A stretch of 64,000 nt of DNA. Origin: Staphylococcus phage Fi4S2. Both the position numbers and the translations under genes were made by a program. The DNA lies in sequence record PV037056.1. One strand, given 5' to 3'. Under the pieces are notes generated by a model, which did no database searches, had not been told where the DNA came from, and worked only from the letters and a program-made list of their open reading frames with translations. Positions 1-36,856 of the stretch are shown here, piece by piece (position 1 is the first letter of the stretch; every line of letters starts with the position of its first letter).

Positions 1-351
1 AACCGTAATGCATCTCAAAATAGTGAAGTAATAACTAAGTCTCATATTGAGGGTTCTAAACGTAAACTGAACGCAGTAGAGCTTCACTTAACATTAAACC
101 AAACATCAGAAGAGTTTGAGGCAGGTTACTTAAGATTTTACTTAGATAAGGTACGTAACAACTCAGGTAGAGTATCTAGTAAAATCATACCTATGAGAGT
201 AGAGCCTGAAACTATGACAGTTAGAGATTGCTTACCTGAAGAAATACAAGAGCACTCAGAAGTAATGAACTCTAGAGATAGTCAAGTGTTTAACAAACCT
301 AAACAAGAGTCACCTACTTCAAGAGCTAAAAGTTTTGATAATGGATTTTAG
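1..351 (+). CDS. 3' fragment (C-terminal ~116 aa) of an upstream gene; start lies outside the window
   Basis: Frame 1 is open from position 1 to a TAG at 349-351. It sits directly upstream of the RBS (GGAGGAAG) of the next gene. No function assignable from the fragment. Confidence 0.4.
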   Translation, partial: NRNASQNSEVITKSHIEGSKRKLNAVELHLTLNQTSEEFEAGYLRFYLDKVRNNSGRVSSKIIPMRVEPETMTVRDCLPEEIQEHSEVMNSRDSQVFNKPKQESPTSRAKSFDNGF

Positions 352-362
352 GAGGAAGATTA

Positions 363-944
363 ATGAAATTTATATTTTTCACAGACAGTCATTTTCACTT
401 ATTCACAGACTTTAGTAAACCTGATGAGTTTTATCGTAATGACAGATTTAGAGAACAGATAGAAACTTTAAATCATGTTTTTACTCTTGCTAGAGAAAAG
501 GAAGCTACAATTATTTTTGGTGGTGATTTATTTCATAAACGTAATGCTGTAGATACAGTAGTATATAATGAGGTATTTAAGGTATTTGCTAGAAATAAAG
601 ATGTAGCTGTCTTATTACTCAGAGGCAACCATGATGCTACAACCAATTCAGTGTATACTGACTCAAGTATAGACACGTTTGAATACTTACCTAATGTAAG
701 TGTATTTCAATCTTTTGGAACTATAGAGGTAGGTAATGCAAACTTAGTATTTACAGCTTATGGTGATGAGACTGAAGAGATAAAGGACTACATTGAAGAT
801 AACTACAATACAGATAAGGTTAACATCCTTGTAGGACACTTAGGTGTAGAAGGGTCTTTAACAGGTAAAGGTTCACACAGATTAGAAGGAGCTTTTGGGT
901 ACCAAGACCTTTTACCTGATAAGTATGATTTTATTCTTTTAGGG
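363..944 (+). CDS. Mre11/SbcD-like metallophosphoesterase nuclease, exon 1
   Basis: Calcineurin-like phosphoesterase motifs are present: D-S-H (FFTDSHFH), GD (IFGGDLFH) and GNHD (LLRGNHD). The ORF stops right after LLG, and motif IV (GH-YH) is completed by the downstream exon HYHRRQ. Confidence 0.75.
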
Positions 945-2827
945 TAGATGCCCTGCTTATTCGTAAAGAGTAAGTACCGAGTGTTAAATGCTATGAATCC
1001 GTAAAGCTAACTAAACTGAAACAGAAGAGGAAACTCTAGATGGAAAAGTTGTGAAAACAGAAAAAATTAGTTAGATGTACTAAGGTTAAATCCTAAGGTA
1101 TACACAATCGGTCTATAGCAGGGAAAGACCTAAGTTCAAATGAATAAGGGAGACCCTCAACGACTATTCCGTATAGGTGACGGAAGTAAAACCCTAAACG
1201 ACTGAGGGAAGAAAAATACTCCTACCTTAACTAAGGTAGAACAAATAGTCTCCACCCGTACCGAAAGGTAGGGCTATAGATGAACTATAGGATTACAAAG
1301 TGGTGTTTGTAATCAAAGAATGTTAAATAAATTATAACTTCCTATTGACATTACTTCCCTAACATGTTATAGTACATGTATAAGGAGGTGTAATAATGTC
1401 AGAAAGTACAACGTACAGAAAAATTAAAATAAGGTTAGTACCAACAAAAGAACAGGAAGAGTTAATGTGGAAGCATGTTCATGCTAGTAGATTTATTTAC
1501 AATTGGGGTCTTGAAAGGTGGTATAGTAATTTAGATAATGGAATAAAGAATACTACAAGTAATAAGTTATCTAAAGAACTAAAAACAGTGAAAGAAGAAA
1601 ACCCATGGTTAAAAGAGGTATCTAATAAAACTTTAGTAAAATCATTACAAGTTCTAGAGTTTAATATGAAGAGGTTTTTTAAAAAACAAACTAAAAGACC
1701 TAAATTTAAGAGCTCTAAAAGCAGTATACCTTCTTTTAAAACACGAACAGAAACTAAGTGGGGTAATAAACATTTACCTAACATTGAAGGAGATAGGATA
1801 CGGTTAGAAAAACTAAAATTAGTTAAATTATCTTCTAAGATAACTAAATCTATGAAAGAAAAGAACATAAACCCTGTATTTTATTCTAGTACAATCTATT
1901 ATGATGGTAAATATTGGTATATTTCATTAGCATATAAAGTCGAGAACCAAGACAAAAAAGAACTCACCAATGAAACCATAGGTATAGACTTAGGAATAAA
2001 ATCATTAGCTACTTGTTCAAATGGTAAATCTTATAAAAATATTAATAAAAGTTCTAAAGTTAAAAAACTAGAGAAAAGACTAACTAGATTACAAAGACAA
2101 CTATCACGTAAGTATGAAATGAATAAAGATAAAATACGAGTAGGACTACTTAATACAGATGGAACACCTAAGATAGATAAGCAAGGTAGACACATGTATA
2201 AGTATTCTAAAACTAAGAACATTATTAAGTTAGAAAAAGAGATAAAACTCTTACACAGAAAACTTAAAAATATTAGAAATAATCATGTTCATACTATGAC
2301 TAAAGAAATAGTAGAATTATTACCACAAGAAATAGTAATAGAAGATTTAAAAGTAAGTAATATGTTAAAGAATAAACATTTATCTAAACATATAAGTAAA
2401 GCTAATTGGTATGAAATACGTAGACAATTAACTTATAAATGTGAGGATAGAGGAATTCTTCTTACAATAGCAAATACTTATTACCCTTCAAGTCAAACCT
2501 GTAGTCATTGTGGTAATCGTTTAACCAAACAAGACAAACTTAGTCTTAAAGAGAGAACTTACAAATGTAAGAAATGTAATTCTAGTTTAGATAGGGACTT
2601 AAATGCTAGTATTAACTTAATGAACTATAGATACTCCAAATGGTGTCAAAATAATATAATTTCACAATAAAAGAAATATATTATATGTAGGATTCCGTAA
2701 ATCCGAATTTACGCCTTTGGAGTATCATACAAACCTTAGTAGAGTAATAAGAAGTAATTCTTTACAGAATGAAATACTCAAAAAGGGATACGTTGAAGAA
2801 GGAAGTTATAAATTAATTAACATACGG
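945..2827 (+). mobile_element. Group I intron with embedded tnpB (IStron-like) interrupting the nuclease gene at motif IV
   Basis: A ~450-nt ORF-free structured 5' region carries group I P7-like pairing strands GACTA (~1162-1166) and TAGTC (~1246-1250). The flanking exons join in-frame (intron length 1883 nt) and reconstitute the conserved GH-YH nuclease motif. The 3' end is ...ACGG followed by exon CATTATCAT. Confidence 0.7.
1396..2670 (+). CDS. tnpB: TnpB (IS200/IS605-family OrfB, RuvC-like RNA-guided nuclease)
   Basis: 424 aa. The N-terminus KIKIRLVPTKEQEELM is typical of OrfB. RuvC-I is IGIDLGIKSLA and RuvC-II is IVIEDLKV. A zinc finger CSHCG...CKKCN is followed by RuvC-III DRDLNASINL. 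Strong RBS AAGGAGGTG. Confidence 0.85.
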   Translation: MSESTTYRKIKIRLVPTKEQEELMWKHVHASRFIYNWGLERWYSNLDNGIKNTTSNKLSKELKTVKEENPWLKEVSNKTLVKSLQVLEFNMKRFFKKQTKRPKFKSSKSSIPSFKTRTETKWGNKHLPNIEGDRIRLEKLKLVKLSSKITKSMKEKNINPVFYSSTIYYDGKYWYISLAYKVENQDKKELTNETIGIDLGIKSLATCSNGKSYKNINKSSKVKKLEKRLTRLQRQLSRKYEMNKDKIRVGLLNTDGTPKIDKQGRHMYKYSKTKNIIKLEKEIKLLHRKLKNIRNNHVHTMTKEIVELLPQEIVIEDLKVSNMLKNKHLSKHISKANWYEIRRQLTYKCEDRGILLTIANTYYPSSQTCSHCGNRLTKQDKLSLKERTYKCKKCNSSLDRDLNASINLMNYRYSKWCQNNIISQ

Positions 2828-3271
2828 CATTATCATAGAAGACAGTATTTCCAAAACCCAAATCACTTTTATGGTGGTTCTTTAATGCAACAATCGTTCT
2901 CAGATGAGCAAGAAGCTAATGGTGTTCACTTAATAGATACTGATACTATTACAACGGAATTTATACCTCTAGATACACGTAGGTTTATTACAGTAAGAGG
3001 AGATGATGTTCCTGAAGACCTAGACCAACTTATAGAGTATGGTCACTTCATTAGATTTGTAGGTAGTACTAACCAAGCTAAAGCGATAGAGTTAGCATCT
3101 ACAGATGAGACTAATAACATACGAGTAGAGTTACAAAAAGATTATACGGTAGAAAAACGTATAGATAGTGAAGTCACTGACTCACCATTATCTATAGCAT
3201 CAAGCTATTCAGATAAGTACTATCCTGAAGCTAAAAAAGAAATACTAGAATGTCTACAGGAGGTGTTATAG
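2828..3271 (+). CDS. Mre11/SbcD-like nuclease, exon 2
   Basis: Starts HYHRRQYF...GGSLMQQSFSDEQ, the C-terminal part of the SbcD/Mre11 fold. It is in frame with exon 1 once the intron is removed. Confidence 0.7.
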   Translation, partial: HYHRRQYFQNPNHFYGGSLMQQSFSDEQEANGVHLIDTDTITTEFIPLDTRRFITVRGDDVPEDLDQLIEYGHFIRFVGSTNQAKAIELASTDETNNIRVELQKDYTVEKRIDSEVTDSPLSIASSYSDKYYPEAKKEILECLQEVL

Positions 3272-3651
3272 TGAGTGATTACATTACTAAGTTTAATGAG
3301 GTTAAACAAGGGAAGAAATCAGGAAAGAGTATAGCTGAGTTTGTAGATGACTTTATGAGAGATGTAGACCCTGACATCTTTAAACCTAAAATCACTTTCC
3401 TTGACATTTCTAGTGTAGTAGGAGATAATGTAGTAGACACTAAACCAATATTACAATTTAGAGATTGGGATGGTGTTGAGGAGAATATATGTAATGTTAT
3501 TGACTTAGATGATGGTTTAAATAAAGTTAGACAAATATTAAAAGATAGTAATTATGAATTTCATTATATGAGAACTTATAAACCTAATAACGTTTGGGTT
3601 ATAGACTATGGCTCTCATAGTACATCTTTTTTAGTTAAGGAGGCAAAATAG
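3250..3651 (+). CDS. hypothetical protein
   Basis: 133-aa ORF overlapping the nuclease 3' end by 22 nt; sits between the nuclease and the ATPase. Confidence 0.5.
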   Translation: MSTGGVIVSDYITKFNEVKQGKKSGKSIAEFVDDFMRDVDPDIFKPKITFLDISSVVGDNVVDTKPILQFRDWDGVEENICNVIDLDDGLNKVRQILKDSNYEFHYMRTYKPNNVWVIDYGSHSTSFLVKEAK

Positions 3652-5529
3652 ATGGTTGTTTTTAAGAAGGTCATAATAAAAAACTTTATGGCAATAGAGG
3701 AAGCTGTGTTAGAGCTAGATAATAGAGGTCTAGTTCTGATAGAAGGAGAGAATAAGTCTAATGAATCGTATGTAAGTAATGGTTCATCAAAAACAACTTT
3801 ACTATCTTCTATTACATACGCTTTATATGGGAAAACTGAAAAAGGTATTAAAGCTGATGATGTAGTAAACAACAAGCATAAAAAGAATACTAGCATTGTA
3901 CTAGAATTTATGATAGCAGAAGACCTATATAGAATTGAACGTTATCGTAAGGATAAGGTAAACAAGAATAAGGTTAAATTATTCTGTAATGATAAAGAGA
4001 TAACAGGCTCTACAAATGATGTAACTGACCAACAGATACAAGACTTGTTTAAGATAGACTATAACACATATCTAAACGCAATCATGTATGGTCAGGGAGA
4101 CGTTCCTATGTTCTCTCAAGCTACAGATAAAGGTAAAAAAGAGATACTTGAGTCTGTAACTGGAGTTGCTGTGTATCAGAAAGCACAGGAGGTAGCTAAA
4201 GAGAAGGTAAAAGAAGTAGCTTCTCAACAGCAAGAGATAGAAAGAGACATTCAAACAAAAGAAATGGAAAAACAAAACATCAGAAACATATTTGATAGTA
4301 AGCTAGTAGACTATCAAAATACAATGGATGCTGTTAATCAAAAAACTGAGCAATTGAAATATGAGCAAGAGCAATACAATACGCTTAGTCAAACCATAGA
4401 TAGTCAGGTGCAAGAGTTAGAATCTCAGAAACAAGAAGTACCTAGTAATGAGTTTACATACTCACAGGATTACTATAATGCAAAGTCTAAGCTTGACCAA
4501 GTAGTTAAGATAGAGCAAGACCAATCACAGAAGTATTATCAATGTTCTTCAGAAATAAAAATGTTAGAACAGAATAAGAATAACTTAAATATAAATAAGA
4601 ACTGTCCTGTTTGTGGGTCTGAATTAGATACCTCACACAAGGAGAAAGAGTTACAATCTATAGAAGAACAACTAAGTTCACTGTCTACCAATATGGGTAC
4701 TATTAGTTCCCAAATGGATAAGATAAAACAAGCTAAAGAAAAGCTAGAGGGTATCATTCAAGATGAGGATAATAAAGCTTATCAAAATTCAAATAATGTA
4801 TTGACAATAAAAGAAGCTAATGATAAGATAGACTCAGAGATAAGAAGAGTTAAGGAGCAGTTAACACAAAAAGAGCATCAGCTATCTTTAATGCAAAATA
4901 CGATAGACTCAATGTCTACCGTTCCAAAGCCTGTTTTAGATAATGAATCTATAGAGGAATTAGAAACAGTTGTTAAGTCTATGCAAAAAGACATTCTTGA
5001 CTTAGAAGATAAGAAAACGTATTACTCACAAGCAGTAGATGCTTTTTCTAATAAAGGTATACGTTCTGTCATCTTAGACTTTGTAACACCATTCTTAAAT
5101 GAAAAAGCTAATAAGTATTTAACTATACTTTCAGGCTCTGACATTGAAGTTAAGTTTCAAACTCAAGTGGAGAATAATAAAGGTGAATTAAAAGATAAGT
5201 TTGATGTTACTGTAGTAAACAAAAACGGAGGTCAATCTTATAAAGCTAACTCAGCAGGAGAACAAAAGCGTATTGATTTAGCTATCAGCTTTGCTATACA
5301 AGACTTAATCATGGATAAGAATGACTTAGCTACTAATATCGCTTTATATGATGAGTGCTTTGATGGGTTAGACATTATCGGATGTGAAAATGTTATTACA
5401 CTATTGAAGGATAGGTTAAAAACTGTTCCAACTATCTTTGTTATCACACATAATACACACCTTGCTCCTTTATTTGAGAATTCAATAAAGGTTGTAAAAG
5501 AAAACGGAATAGCAAGACTAAAAAATTAG
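3652..5529 (+). CDS. SbcC/Rad50-like SMC ATPase (partner of the Mre11-like nuclease)
   Basis: Walker A-like NGSSKTT, a long coiled-coil, a CPVCG zinc hook, a C-terminal SAGEQKRIDLAISFA signature and a LYDECFDGLD Walker B. RBS AAGGAGG. Confidence 0.85.
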   Translation: MVVFKKVIIKNFMAIEEAVLELDNRGLVLIEGENKSNESYVSNGSSKTTLLSSITYALYGKTEKGIKADDVVNNKHKKNTSIVLEFMIAEDLYRIERYRKDKVNKNKVKLFCNDKEITGSTNDVTDQQIQDLFKIDYNTYLNAIMYGQGDVPMFSQATDKGKKEILESVTGVAVYQKAQEVAKEKVKEVASQQQEIERDIQTKEMEKQNIRNIFDSKLVDYQNTMDAVNQKTEQLKYEQEQYNTLSQTIDSQVQELESQKQEVPSNEFTYSQDYYNAKSKLDQVVKIEQDQSQKYYQCSSEIKMLEQNKNNLNINKNCPVCGSELDTSHKEKELQSIEEQLSSLSTNMGTISSQMDKIKQAKEKLEGIIQDEDNKAYQNSNNVLTIKEANDKIDSEIRRVKEQLTQKEHQLSLMQNTIDSMSTVPKPVLDNESIEELETVVKSMQKDILDLEDKKTYYSQAVDAFSNKGIRSVILDFVTPFLNEKANKYLTILSGSDIEVKFQTQVENNKGELKDKFDVTVVNKNGGQSYKANSAGEQKRIDLAISFAIQDLIMDKNDLATNIALYDECFDGLDIIGCENVITLLKDRLKTVPTIFVITHNTHLAPLFENSIKVVKENGIARLKN

Positions 5530-5540
5530 GAGGATTTAAG

Positions 5541-6143
5541 TTGAAACTACAACCTATAGATAAAGATTACTCTATGCTAGTTGTAAGGCATAAGAGATGT
5601 AATAAAGAAATTAAAGTGCATAATTCAGATTTAGTAAAGTTTTTCCCTTTCAATAACTTATACCAATACTATGTAAATGAGGAAGGAGATAGACTTATTT
5701 TTAGAAGGTACGCAGGGGTATCTAACACATCTTATGGTGTGGATGATACGTCAGCTGATGTTATTGAGGATAATAAAACATGTCGATTAGAGAATATGAC
5801 TAATCCAGTTGTAGAGCAAGAGAACTTAGCTCTCATAGCACAAGCTAAAGAATGGGGTATACCAACCTTAGTAGATGAAGACTTCACAGAGAAGGACATA
5901 CAGCAGGGATTCTACAAGCTAGGAGACATTTTAGACATGTACTCTTCTATAATTACAGAACGTTATAAGGAGACAGTTAAAAACCCATTCTTTGATGAGA
6001 AGCAACGTATTCAGCAGACACGTATTGCTTTACATAAAGATAATAATAAAAGTTTTGAAGATGAATACAAGTTTATAGGAAGCTTATATACAATGTTAAA
6101 CTATATGAGAAAAATGGTACGTAAAAAACAGTACGCAAGGTAG
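5541..6143 (+). CDS. hypothetical protein (TTG start)
   Basis: 200-aa ORF; TTG start 9 nt after AGGAGG. Confidence 0.5.
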   Translation: MKLQPIDKDYSMLVVRHKRCNKEIKVHNSDLVKFFPFNNLYQYYVNEEGDRLIFRRYAGVSNTSYGVDDTSADVIEDNKTCRLENMTNPVVEQENLALIAQAKEWGIPTLVDEDFTEKDIQQGFYKLGDILDMYSSIITERYKETVKNPFFDEKQRIQQTRIALHKDNNKSFEDEYKFIGSLYTMLNYMRKMVRKKQYAR

Positions 6144-6154
6144 GTGGATAGTTT

Positions 6155-7228
6155 ATGAAGTTTGAAGACTTCTTACCCTCTATTGCAGGGGAGTACAGAG
6201 AAGATGCTGTAGGAGAGTATAGATTTTGTTGTCCGTTCTGTGGAGAGACAAAGTATAAGTTCTATTTAAAGGTTTCTTTAGATAGTGATAATGGCCTTTA
6301 CCAGTGTAAGAAGTGTGGAGAATCAGGAAACCCTATCACCTTCATGAAAACCTACTTTGGGGCTAAGGACTATAAAGAAGCTAAAGACTTATTAGAGTCT
6401 AATGGTGTAGAAATAGAAGATACAGATTTTAGAGGGGACTATAAAGATAAGTCATTGAGTGACCATGAGAAATTCATGTTATTCTTAAGTGGAGTAAAAG
6501 ATACTCCTGAAGTTAAAAGTGATAAGTCCCCTGTGCCATTACCTACTAATCTAAAGTACATTAGACACAATGCAAATACACAAGAGGCACAACCTTTTAT
6601 AAAGTACCTTCTTGGAAGAGGTATAACAATGCAACAAATGATGAGCTTATCTATTGGTTATGTAGTCAATGGGGGTTATTATAAATCTGATGGCTCATAT
6701 GCAACTCTAAGAAATTCAGTTGTATTCTTTACTTATGATTTAGACGGTAATTATATTTATTGGAACACTAGAAGTATTGATTCCAATGCAGGAATTAAGT
6801 CTATAAATGCTCCAGGTAAAAAGACTGAGTATACACGTAAAGATGTTGTTTTTAACTTAGATAAAGCACAACATGCACCTTATATAGTACTACATGAAGG
6901 AGTTTTTGATGCTTTAACATTCTATAATACAGGTATAGCCACTTTTGGTAAGCAAGTTACAGATACCCAAGTAGAGTTAATATTGTCAGTACTTAAAGGA
7001 ACTGAAAAACCCTTATACTTATTTCTTGATAAAGATGCATTAACAGAAACCATGAATAGCGCAGAGAAGTTTTATAGGGAACACCCGTATACTTATGTAG
7101 TACCTCATGGAGATGAAGATGCTAACGATTTAGGATTAAAGGAATCAATTAAGATGATAAAAGAAAATGCTATTAAGGCTACACCTGAAAACTTAACAAA
7201 CTTTTTTATTTTAGAAAAGTTAGGATAA
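6155..7228 (+). CDS. DNA primase (DnaG-like: CHC2 zinc finger + TOPRIM)
   Basis: CPFCGETKYKF...CKKCGESG zinc ribbon. The TOPRIM region is VLHEGVFDALTF...LFLDKD. Confidence 0.8.
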   Translation: MKFEDFLPSIAGEYREDAVGEYRFCCPFCGETKYKFYLKVSLDSDNGLYQCKKCGESGNPITFMKTYFGAKDYKEAKDLLESNGVEIEDTDFRGDYKDKSLSDHEKFMLFLSGVKDTPEVKSDKSPVPLPTNLKYIRHNANTQEAQPFIKYLLGRGITMQQMMSLSIGYVVNGGYYKSDGSYATLRNSVVFFTYDLDGNYIYWNTRSIDSNAGIKSINAPGKKTEYTRKDVVFNLDKAQHAPYIVLHEGVFDALTFYNTGIATFGKQVTDTQVELILSVLKGTEKPLYLFLDKDALTETMNSAEKFYREHPYTYVVPHGDEDANDLGLKESIKMIKENAIKATPENLTNFFILEKLG

Positions 7229-35183: not shown

Positions 35184-35747
35184 ATGGAAAAAGAGATTTG
35201 GAAAGACATACCAGGTTATGAAGGTCTGTATCAAGCAAGCTCATTAGGTCGTATTAGAAGCTTAGACAGAAAATTAGTTACCAAAAATGGAAGTGTTAAG
35301 ATTATTAAAGGTTTAATTAAGAAGCCTTCTATAGACAAAAATAATCGGTTTACAGTAGGGCTAAGCAAAAAAGGTAAAAGGAAATCATTTACCGTTCATA
35401 AAATAATTGCGCTAACATTTATTGGAGAAAGACCTGAAGGTTATGAAGTTTGCCATATAGATGGAAATAATCAAAATAACAAGCTAGGCAATATTAGGTA
35501 CGATACACATAGTCAAAATGAGATTGACAGGTATAGATATGGGGATAAAACTCCATCAGGTAAACTAACTATTAGAGATGTTTTAGAAGTAAGAAATCTA
35601 TATGCTACAGGAAAGTATAATCAAAAAGAACTATCTAGAAAGTTTAAAGTAAATCAAAAAAGCATATGCTATATTGTTAATCGTTCATCATTTTCTTGGT
35701 TAAATGATGATGGTTCTATTATTGAATCAGATACAACGATAAGTTAA
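35184..35747 (+). CDS. HNH homing endonuclease (NUMOD4 + HNH_3; I-HmuI-like)
   Basis: WKDIPGYEGLYQASSLGRIRSL is a NUMOD4 motif. The HNH motif is CHIDGNNQNN..NL..THSQN. Confidence 0.8.
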   Translation: MEKEIWKDIPGYEGLYQASSLGRIRSLDRKLVTKNGSVKIIKGLIKKPSIDKNNRFTVGLSKKGKRKSFTVHKIIALTFIGERPEGYEVCHIDGNNQNNKLGNIRYDTHSQNEIDRYRYGDKTPSGKLTIRDVLEVRNLYATGKYNQKELSRKFKVNQKSICYIVNRSSFSWLNDDGSIIESDTTIS

Positions 35748-36378
35748 TTATCAGACATACGAGAGATACCGTATGTTGCCTGGCAGAGGCTTTATATCTG
35801 ACTGTTGGTCTCGACTGGTGACTCCTTCCAGTCCAGTATCTAATTCACACAGAGCCTTAGCGCTCATCTAAATTTCCGTGGTTCTGACTGGTGCGCACTG
35901 GTCTTTACTGAAAACTTAGGGTTTCCCTGTACTAGCGTTAGTATCGGTTAAGCGTTAGATAAGGTGAACCGTACCTACTTTCCAAATAGGGATAACTCAA
36001 AATTAGATAGCAACTTGAGAGTGAAATAAGTCGGACAGCTTTATATTCAGAAGAAGTGTCAGAGAATATAAAGTTATGGCTTGAGATACCGAGCCTTGAT
36101 TATTAGGTATCCGACACTTGGCGTGTAACCTAAGTTTATGGTTAGATGGGTTACAACATAAGGAAGCTGATTTTCTCTGTATAGCTTAGAGGAACTCCAT
36201 AAGACAGCCAAACCACTGTATATTCAGTTACTATGACAAAGCTATATGAGGTAAACTCTTATATAGCTCCCTGTTATAGTGCATACACGCAGTGACGAGC
36301 GTTTCAACATCAAGGATACTCATACAATTGTCGTAAAATAATATTAACCGTAATCTAAGTACGGGAGCCTTGATGGGA

Positions 36379-36412
36379 CACCTATTAATTAAAATAGGTG
36401 TTTTTTTTTTGT
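36379..36412 (+). terminator. intrinsic terminator
   Basis: CACCTATTAATTAAAATAGGTG followed by T11. Confidence 0.75.
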
Positions 36413-36472: not shown

Positions 36473-36856
36473 ATGAAGAAATTAATTATTGTAGCTATTT
36501 TAAGTGTATTTTTATTAGGAGCCTGTTCTCAATCAGACAGAGTAAGTGATAATCTATCTAAGGAATCTGACAATTTCAATACAGTAAGAAAGGTAACTGT
36601 TATTAACGCTATAAAACAAGATGTTATTTTCCAAATGTCAGGTAGAATGTCTATTAAAGCAGATAAAGAAGATAATCAACTTGAAGTTGTAGTAGAGAAG
36701 AAAAAAGGACAGTATCAAAAACATATTATAGGTCTTTCTGATAATGTCTCTTATGTAGTAGAGGATGTAACAACTAAGAATGTAAGTAACTATCAATATG
36801 AAATTAACTACAATCCTAAAATGTGGATTCCTGCTAAACCTGATTATAAAGATTAG
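36473..36856 (+). CDS. lipoprotein
   Basis: Signal peptide with a lipobox LLGAC; RBS AAGGAG. Confidence 0.7.
   Translation: MKKLIIVAILSVFLLGACSQSDRVSDNLSKESDNFNTVRKVTVINAIKQDVIFQMSGRMSIKADKEDNQLEVVVEKKKGQYQKHIIGLSDNVSYVVEDVTTKNVSNYQYEINYNPKMWIPAKPDYKD

Follow-up and report, generated by a model that had tools for sequence, protein, structure and literature searches.

What divides a nuclease gene at its catalytic motif in a virulent phage, and can the gene still be expressed? The question arises in Staphylococcus phage Fi4S2 (PV037056.1), of which we analyzed a stretch of 64,000 nt, here called the window; all coordinates are window positions. An open reading frame (ORF) at 363-947 encodes the first part of an SbcD/Mre11-like nuclease and ends with ...DFILLG and a stop codon, and the same frame picks up at 2828 with HYHRRQ. 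We conclude with high confidence that the DNA in between, 945-2827, is a TnpA-less IStron of group B (IS607-type), that is, a group I intron that carries an insertion sequence (IS). Taken as a whole, the locus is probably best explained by such an IStron that splices, is capable of homing and resides in the SbcD/Mre11-like gene.

The limits of the insert are set by comparison with an uninterrupted relative. A megablast search against 50,697 phage records yielded Staphylococcus phage Golestan-100 (LC647030) as an intron-less homologue, in which both halves form a single uninterrupted gene of 1026 nt annotated as recombination exonuclease A. Exon 1 (363-944, plus strand) comprises 194 codons ending in ...ILLG and matches the Pfam family Metallophos (E 1.7e-13); exon 2 (2828-3271, plus strand) runs from HYHRRQ to the stop codon. 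Each is colinear with the Golestan-100 gene. Joined, they make 1026 nt and 341 aa, gapless and colinear with the 341-aa protein of Golestan-100, with a DNA identity of 91.8% and an identical junction, TTTTAGGG/CATTATCAT. Aligned across this junction with the SbcD structure 7dog, the joined protein places ILLGHYH opposite VMLGHLH and so rebuilds the GHxH motif. The insert measures 1883 nt and sits between the Gly and His codons of that motif, with a boundary that is ambiguous by 0-2 nt because exon 1 and the insert both end in GG. An earlier note, made from the sequence of this DNA alone, had described the interrupted frame, the restored motif and an ORF-free stretch of about 450 nt at the start of the insert. 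These descriptions hold: we found no plus-strand ORF of at least 60 aa in 945-1395, and the alignment to an intron-less homologue that the note proposed fixes the junction exactly, with TAGGG as its left flank. In addition, exon 2 has neither a start codon nor a ribosome-binding site at the junction. In our searches of phage records, the uninterrupted junction is present in 327 records, and the interrupted form at this nuclease site in the window and phage PSU6 only. A 625-aa ORF nearby (3652-5529) contains Rad50/SbcC domains. Within exon 1, the segments 423-542 and 783-842 (61-180 and 421-480 of the gene) share 72-80% identity with Golestan-100, as compared with 90-100% elsewhere in the gene; these patches are only partly PSU6-like and suggest mosaic recombination.

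The 5' part of the insert (945-1314, plus strand) has the features of a group I ribozyme of an IA-like subgroup, as judged from a match to Rfam family RF00028, from covariation and from a homologue in phage PT94. A search of 925-1400 alone (476 nt) gave a full-length RF00028 match at 936-1273 with 31.7 bits (E 2.3e-6), and no intron was reported for the whole window at the gathering score. Because the match is below threshold, the fold was tested independently, and we argue membership from covariation and homology. The minimum-free-energy fold of 936-1345 misses the group I architecture, which contains a pseudoknot. For this reason, the helices were built by hand and checked by covariation: P2 (956-962/968-974), P3 (979-985/1215-1221), P4 (989-994/1115-1120), P5 (999-1001/1109-1111), P5a (1007-1014/1067-1074), P6 (1121-1123/1154-1156), P7 (1162-1166/1246-1250), P7.1 (1167-1172/1180-1185), P7.2 (1192-1195/1205-1208), P8 (1222-1228/1233-1239), P9 (1255-1262/1267-1273), P9.1 (1274-1279/1285-1290) and P9.2 (1291-1299/1306-1314), all on the plus strand. 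The test set, alignment A1, held 16 homologues from different genes and phages, and the structure tested ran from P2 to P9.2 with the P3/P7 pseudoknot. Standard pairs occupy 86.4% of its cells, as compared with 69.4% after shuffling and 36-47% when the partners are slid by 1-3 columns. Both sides have changed in 49 of the 81 pairs, and the covariation score of 0.434 (0.149 when shuffled) was reached by none of 500 shuffles. Pairing is nearly complete in P3 (96% of cells), P4 (96%), P5 (94%), P7 (97.5%), P7.1 (100%), P7.2 (97%) and P9 (96%), and P5a also falls within this range of 94-100%. The pair GACTA (1162-1166) and TAGTC (1246-1250), which the earlier note had singled out as P7-like, is P7 in the RF00028 match; the covariance-model search it had suggested for this region thus returned the full-length family, though below threshold, and the fold is upheld by covariation.

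P7.1 and P7.2 form a pair of hairpins in the stretch from P7 to the 3' strand of P3, which is a hallmark of subgroup IA. Every IStron is reported to belong to this class (PMC4227781). The 451-nt ribozyme region gave 297 matches in 118 phage records, mostly from Twortvirinae of Staphylococcus and some from Enterococcus and Clostridium phages. The PT94 homologue clears the RF00028 gathering score with 52.6 bits, and the SEP1 homologue sits in a tail-lysin coding sequence that its authors annotated as joined. The weakest BLAST matches are to Clostridium phage D-1873, where a group I intron is annotated, and to the corresponding intron of phage c-st; both introns are published IStrons (PMC4227781).

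Several members of the ribozyme family differ in cargo or ends. At the OPT-SC01 locus, the ribozyme homologue (2577-2939) is followed at 3104-4399 by an ORF of 432 aa other than tnpB (16% identity, no NCBIfam family); members of the family thus differ in the kind of cargo they carry. In Enterococcus phage LG1 (~2566-2602) and in phage PMBT8 (~2560-2585), P1 seems to pair an exon-final U (CGCAGU/GCUGUG and AGAGU/GCUCU), so that the family would span both U-ending 5' splice sites and the G-ending sites of IStrons. SEP1 (~2555-3066) and Alsa_1 (~1163-1676) carry introns of about 510 nt that lack an ORF and have the ends of an IStron, starting with a hairpin GG/TAAC...GTTAC and ending in ...TTTTAACCTATGG/ and ...TTTTAACCTATTGG/, respectively. 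AU-rich repeats are present and RAGATH-18, the RNA motif discussed below, is absent. These introns look like IStrons after loss of the IS part, by analogy with ORF-less BcISt1.

The ends of the insert are those of a group B IStron. The predicted 5' splice site lies at 944/945 (TTTTAGGG/TAGATG), with G944 as the last exon base and U as the first base of the intron; the predicted 3' splice site lies at 2827/2828 (...AACATACGG/CATTAT). The element terminus, ACGG (2824-2827, plus strand), supplies the terminal intron G, G2827, at the junction with the intron-less allele. The same terminus is found in PSU6 and SPJ2, and other copies end in ACGG or ATGG. Translation of exon 1 is ended by the first intron codon, UAG (UAA in PSU6). 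According to the Rfam alignment and a hairpin scan, P1 (940-955, plus strand) consists of U940.G955, A941-U954, G942-C953, G943-C952 and G944-C951, followed by U945.G950 and the loop AGAU; its 5' strand is the TAGGG that ends exon 1 (940-944, plus strand). Whereas a standard group I intron follows a U, the last base of exon 1 here is G944, a deviation already known from group B IStrons (PMC4227781). The U.G pair is shifted one step into the intron, directly before the loop, as group B requires. Group B IStrons insert after AGGG, TGGG or GAGG, begin with U, have the shifted U.G pair plus loop and end in CGG, as verified by reverse transcription PCR (PMC4227781, PMC13565253).

Moreover, the guide strand of P1 tracks the exon into which the element is inserted. 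It reads AGGG/GCCCUG in the window, GGCGG/GCCGUG in the Romulus portal gene, UGAGG/GCCUUG in the DH2 portal gene and CAAGG/GCCUUG in Alsa_1, and such changes with the exon were seen across five insertion sites. Other phage copies follow GGGGG, ATGGG, TGGGG, GGCGG or TGAGG. The internal guide sequence as read from the window, GAUGCCCU (947-954, plus strand), is complementary to the ligated junction AGGG/CAUU, and within it 947-950 (GAUG) can form a P10 of 4 bp with the start of exon 2, CAUU (2828-2831); in other copies P10 has 2-4 bp.

An AU-rich inverted repeat encloses the coding part of the element. Its arms, at 1320-1343 and 2800-2823 (plus strand), are 24 nt long, with 22 complementary positions (92%) and 83% A/U, and the 3' arm overlaps the end of the guide-RNA scaffold described below. 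Group B IStrons have a stem of 15-34 bp and more than 80% A/U around the ORF region (PMC4227781). Long AU-rich duplexes of different sequence are present in PSU6, SPJ2, Romulus, SapYZU04 and SA11: two changes in the 3' arm of PSU6 improve pairing, and in Romulus and SapYZU04 a different sequence forms 22-33 bp. In a structural model, the stem would place the 3' splice site beside P9.2. The duplex prediction adds a further helix between UUGAC (1345-1349, a -35 region) and GUUGA (2792-2796, in the 3' strand of RAGATH-18); it recurs in PSU6 and SPJ2 and may be a coincidence. We consider it very probable that the element splices. The overall interpretation is favored by the exact, in-frame junction, the covarying ribozyme helices, a P1 that tracks the exon, the group B signature and the precedents of BcISt1 and CboIStron. 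BcISt1 has been shown to splice after a G in vivo (PMC4227781).

All sequence features of group B are found together in 945-2827: a 5' ribozyme, a GG site with exon G and intron U, a CGG end, the shifted U.G pair, the AU-rich stem and an IS607-family ORF B. The IS607 assignment is based on RAGATH-18, the GG target and homology to the c-st element, not on a protein hidden Markov model. The earlier note had recognized the IStron layout, with the ribozyme 5' and tnpB 3', and had attributed it to the IS605 type; the layout stands, whereas the AGGG target, the CGG end, the AU-rich repeat and RAGATH-18 are of IS607 type. Group A (IS200/IS605) IStrons are ruled out by the AGGG target, the CGG end, the 24-nt AU-rich stem and the lack of TnpA. 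Group A, exemplified by CdISt1 of Clostridioides difficile, shares the ribozyme-5'/tnpB-3' layout, but its members follow TTGAT, ATTAT or TTTAT, end in TCAG and have a short balanced stem, an HUH TnpA and subterminal palindromes, none of which occurs in the window element. A group II intron is ruled out, as the insert is too short and has the wrong fold; an intein is ruled out by in-frame stop codons in the insert. A plain IS insertion was considered and rejected. The lack of ORF A is not unusual, as published group B members without it include CsISt1, which has ORF B only, and CbISt4 (PMC4227781).

The tnpB gene (1396-2670, plus strand) encodes 424 aa with a helix-turn-helix, a RuvC nuclease domain and a zinc finger, as supported by Pfam (HTH_OrfB_IS605, OrfB_IS605 and Cas12f1-like_TNB), NCBIfam (guided_TnpB, 287 bits versus a cutoff of 100) and PDB matches. 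The RuvC residues D198, E316 and D399-D401 and the zinc ligands C369, C372, C391 and C394 do not vary among seven phage copies. The closest solved structure is PDB 8iaz (E 4e-51, residues 9-410), with which the RuvC triad aligns. We take 8iaz to be the IS607 TnpB of ISFba1, whose catalytic residues as published, D194 and E290, align at an offset of +3. The ratio of nonsynonymous to synonymous substitution rates (dN/dS) of tnpB is 0.29 relative to PSU6 and 0.35-0.55 relative to more distant copies. No tnpA was found in the element, nor any remnant of it between 1343 and 1396. A ribosome-binding site, AAGGAGG (1382-1388, plus strand), lies 7 nt upstream of the ATG and is conserved in other copies. 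These data bear out the earlier description of an apparently intact, full-length TnpB with RuvC-I, -II and -III residues, a zinc finger and a strong ribosome-binding site.

In front of tnpB, we predict a sigma-70-like promoter (1345-1373, plus strand): TTGACA, a spacer of 17 nt and TATAGT with a TG extension, 11 of 12 positions matching. It is the best promoter-like site in 300-3700 and is situated between the 5' repeat arm and the ribosome-binding site. Its position is conserved in eight copies. PSU6, SPJ2, Romulus, SA11, SapYZU04 and c-st all have both hexamers 17 nt apart, with a spacer of variable sequence, and the Romulus authors annotated a promoter at the equivalent position. A transcript started here, lacking the ribozyme and the 5' arm, could yield TnpB and guide RNA uncontested by splicing.

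Downstream of tnpB lies the predicted scaffold of the TnpB guide RNA (reRNA or omega RNA; 2671-2827, plus strand), which comprises a 43-nt 5' flank, RAGATH-18 (2714-2804) and a 23-nt 3' flank. The RAGATH-18 match (RF03064) begins 43 nt past the tnpB stop codon and scores 65.8 bits, above its gathering score of 44.9. IS607 TnpB guides have RAGATH-18 as their scaffold (PMC11061315), and the motif is also found 3' of tnpB in PSU6, SPJ2, DELF3, DH2, SapYZU04 and c-st. Since the scaffold ends at the 3' splice site, the guide would be the start of exon 2. The predicted guide, CATTATCATAGAAGACAGTA (2828-2847, plus strand), directly follows the scaffold and occurs once in the window; its length of 20 nt is borrowed from ISFba1 (PMC11061315). 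The proposal that an omega RNA from the 3' end uses exon 2 as its guide thus gains support from a motif above threshold and a scaffold ending at the splice site. A fold of 2671-2850 is no more stable than shuffled sequences (z -0.35) and is uninformative.

Given the IS607-type assignment, (T)AGGG at the end of exon 1 is the candidate transposon-associated motif (TAM) of TnpB, a guess from the flanks. Reported TAMs of IS607 TnpB are AGGAG or GAGGG (PMC11061315); TAGGG agrees with GAGGG at 4 of 5 positions, and sister copies share the final GG only. Intron-less Golestan-100 offers TAGGG and a 20/20 match to the guide, and DELF3 offers TAGGG and three mismatches. Kayvirus phiIPLA-RODI and OPT-SC01 have TAGGT and three mismatches, and St14.GH has TAGGA and two. 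The junction Gly codon is GGT or GGA in most sampled intron-less alleles, with 2-3 departures from the guide, which would alter the putative TAM and the G-C pair of P1; resistance to invasion or chance may lie behind this. An IStron-bearing genome is expected to be self-immune, because the element separates TAM from target by 1.9 kb.

The distribution of the element indicates lateral mobility. Between the window and PSU6, the ribozyme is 92% identical, the promoter region 96% and tnpB 93%, while the nuclease exons share 71-72% and neighboring genes 47-70%. Between the window and Golestan-100, which lacks the element, exon 1 shares 88%, exon 2 97% and neighboring genes 96-97%. Hence, the element is far more alike than its host gene and is absent from a near-identical background, which argues for lateral transfer. 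These phages have the element at no fewer than seven different sites; besides the present one, they include motif II of sbcD (GG/DLFH, in SPJ2), sbcC (YG/QGD, in DELF3 and SPJ2), two portal sites (Romulus and DH2), the tail lysin gene (SapYZU04) and a tail/virion protein gene (SA11). At all of these, the related copies are inserted after GG and end in GG. New sites fit insertion at GG by an IS607 serine recombinase, which would require TnpA in trans, and spread at the same site fits homing. In SPJ2, two TnpB IStrons lie within 4.5 kb (2310-6925; sbcD motif II and sbcC), and this record was hit at six places by ribozyme BLAST and at three by the TnpB search.

Relatives of this TnpB occur at 254 places in 173 phage records, 85 of them from Staphylococcus, including Twort. 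Bacterial genomes scanned with a single protein yielded no close relative, and a profile scan found 290, of which the best, from Clostridia and Bacilli, are 41-47% identical; among the best 80 of the 290, none is from Staphylococcus. Within the window, the ribozyme, tnpB and the tail were each found once only.

These observations can be combined into the following scheme. The nuclease gene would be transcribed through the element, and the UAG at the first intron codon would halt ribosomes. The 5' ribozyme would then fold, with P1 formed by exon AGGG and CCCU and its U.G pair one step into the intron, and the 24-bp AU-rich repeat would loop out tnpB and bring G2827 to the core. Two transesterifications would ligate 944 to 2828 and restore a normal nuclease mRNA. 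A second transcript from the internal promoter (~1380), devoid of the ribozyme and the 5' repeat arm, would provide TnpB and a guide RNA consisting of 2671-2827 plus the first ~20 nt of exon 2. The own genome would be spared, its TAM TAGGG and target being split by the element, whereas the intron-less allele of a co-infecting phage would be cut and repaired from the IStron-bearing genome, which copies the element in. TnpB would in this way act in homing, and cutting may also harm a competitor phage. First arrival at a new GG site would probably depend on an IS607 serine recombinase acting in trans. Whether TnpB with this particular guide RNA still cuts DNA is, in our judgment, evenly balanced.

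Several data weigh against this interpretation. On the side of the ribozyme, the RF00028 score of 31.7 is lower than the gathering score of 50, and an Rfam search over 700-3100 (2.4 kb, E<=1) gave RAGATH-18 only and no group I match. On the side of the nuclease, TnpB scores below the NCBIfam IS607 and IS200 cutoffs (164 versus 350 for IS607_TnpB), and N121, N122 and K83, by which ISFba1 reads its TAM, are not conserved in the phage TnpB (8iaz alignment). The guide-RNA 3' flank has 23 nt (2805-2827), compared with ~70 nt in c-st and 64 nt in ISFba1, where it forms two stem-loops and the essential pseudoknot PK1 (PMC11061315). The left-end hairpin GGUAAC...GUUAC of most copies, including c-st, is missing in the window. 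No co-conversion tract of a PSU6-like donor was seen beside the junction. Finally, some sister copies are decaying: the sbcC copy of DELF3 (3820-5019) has lost the N-terminal region of TnpB and has Pro in place of the RuvC-II Glu, and the SA11 copy (4230-4314) keeps TnpB and lacks the RAGATH-18 core.

In view of its short 3' flank, the scaffold may be crippled; it could be minimal or broken. In an alternative that we regard as unlikely, the intron splices but TnpB and its guide RNA no longer cut. The cargo would be a decaying passenger or have another role, such as intron-RNA binding or transcription repression, and by now vertical descent or ordinary recombination would account for most of the element's inheritance. 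The contrast in flank length with ISFba1 (PMC11061315), the loss of the left-end hairpin, the missing co-conversion tract and the decay in DELF3 and SA11 speak for it, as does the report that the TnpB of CboIStron modulates splicing (PMC10690162). However, the catalytic and zinc residues are intact and invariant, dN/dS is 0.29 relative to PSU6 and RAGATH-18 is well above threshold. In addition, the form with the 23-nt flank accompanies an intact TnpB at two sites, sbcD motif IV (window and PSU6) and motif II (SPJ2), which argues that the short flank is functional, and the element has diverged much less from phage to phage than its flanks have, which speaks for recent transfer.

It is quite unlikely, in our view, that the element spreads by an IS607 TnpA acting in trans at GG sites while TnpB only restores excised copies, with no homing between phages. 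Such a TnpA would explain why every copy follows GG and ends in GG, which is the target choice of IS607 (PMC4227781, PMC13565253), and the 2-nt ambiguity of the boundary suits a crossover dinucleotide. Homing alone cannot make new sites, of which there are at least seven, nor was a co-conversion tract seen. Nevertheless, the element has no tnpA and no remnant of one in 1343-1396, and a source is not obvious, given that the 80 best bacterial relatives of TnpB include none from Staphylococcus, although TnpA itself was not searched for. The window copy also lacks the left-end hairpin kept by other copies, and two phages with flanks of only ~71% identity carry the element at one and the same site, as homing predicts. 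A dead IS insertion without splicing, leaving a pseudogene or two separate polypeptides, agrees with public annotations of two coding sequences and a "transposase" and with the RF00028 score below gathering, but is very improbable in light of the abundant compensatory changes in the ribozyme helices, a P1 that follows the exon, two open and conserved exons (88% and 97% to Golestan-100) of which the second, at the junction, lacks both a start codon and a ribosome-binding site, a split inside GHxH that two chains could hardly rebuild, and the in vivo splicing of group B IStrons with the same ends (PMC4227781, PMC10690162).

Group B IStrons were described in 2006-2014, their mechanism has been characterized (PMC10690162), and they have been recorded in C. 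botulinum phages; they seem to be undescribed in virulent staphylococcal phages. Our literature searches returned nothing specific on IStrons in Staphylococcus phages, whose elements appear piecemeal, in papers on Silviavirus, as group I introns, RAGATH-18 or transposases (PMC13346280, PMC7497331). The published members, BcISt1 of Bacillus cereus, CbISt3 and CbISt4 of C. botulinum phages c-st and D-1873, and CsISt1, combine a 5' ribozyme of IA2 type with a 3' ORF B, and there are also copies that have just ORF B or no ORF at all (PMC4227781). The c-st element is homologous to that of the window (ribozyme 74% over 114 nt, TnpB 48-50%). The hosts differ: the window belongs to a strictly virulent Twortvirinae phage of Staphylococcus, whereas published group B elements reside in bacteria or in the plasmid-like c-st prophage. 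In the window, P1 is cut down to a 4-nt loop, with the GGUAAC...GUUAC hairpin missing that c-st and most phage copies have.

As in CboIStron and the CseIStrons, which are of the IS607 family (Zedaveinyte et al., PMC10690162), the 3' splice site of the window element is the junction of scaffold and guide. A single transcript can either be spliced or give rise to guide RNA, not both; CboIStron does splice, and its TnpB cuts vacant sites and promotes retention and spread (PMC10690162). CboIStron has an active serine recombinase TnpA, which the window element lacks. We noticed no discussion in PMC10690162 of a promoter between ribozyme and tnpB, a feature of the window element that could separate the two RNA fates. 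ISFba1 (Ren et al., 2024; PMC11061315) resembles the window in having RAGATH-18 downstream of tnpB, a 5' flank of similar length and a G-rich TAM/flank, but it is a plain IS607 element and not an intron, and its 3' flank is 64 nt as compared with 23 nt. The phage TnpB also differs from that of ISFba1 by ~25 extra residues between RuvC-I and RuvC-II and by its TAM-contacting residues. Classical phage group I introns (T4 td/I-TevI, SPO1 I-HmuI, Twort, Silviavirus) likewise lie in conserved motifs of essential genes, are present or absent among relatives and are expected to spread in mixed infection, and the window ribozyme is ~80% identical to the annotated ORF-less tail-lysin intron of SEP1. 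Unlike in classical homing introns, the endonuclease is of an RNA-guided kind, the flanking exon would set its specificity so that it retargets itself at each new site, and the 5' exon ends in G, not U.

Elsewhere in the window, Rfam reports a DUF3800-I RNA match at 36274-36412 (plus strand), barely above threshold (45.5 bits versus 44.2), between a 187-aa ORF without an NCBIfam family (35184-35747) and an ORF at 36473-36856.

In bacteria, both IStrons and a homing role for TnpB are well established, but the spread of a TnpA-less IStron as a homing intron has so far been a matter of theory only (PMC13565253). The locus and its relatives offer a natural test bed for RNA-guided intron homing between lytic phages, which are culturable and strictly lytic and have close relatives with and without the element, such as Golestan-100 with its TAGGG and 20/20 target. 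In many Staphylococcus phage genomes, including those of therapy candidates, essential genes are annotated as fragments beside a "transposase". Recognizing spliced IStrons would correct these gene models and clear a false safety flag. Should the short guide-RNA flank prove active, it would be of interest to genome editing. More tentatively, RNA-guided homing could be the sole means by which a TnpA-less IStron lineage is now actively invading virulent phages of Staphylococcus (Twortvirinae, therapy candidates among them), with the target of each copy read from its own 3' exon. If so, the internal promoter would side-step the conflict between intron and guide described for bacterial IStrons, and the lineage would be marked by a naturally shortened scaffold with a 23-nt 3' flank. 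The annotated "group I introns" and "transposases" of these phages would then be one family, and the ORF-less copies would be decayed IStrons.

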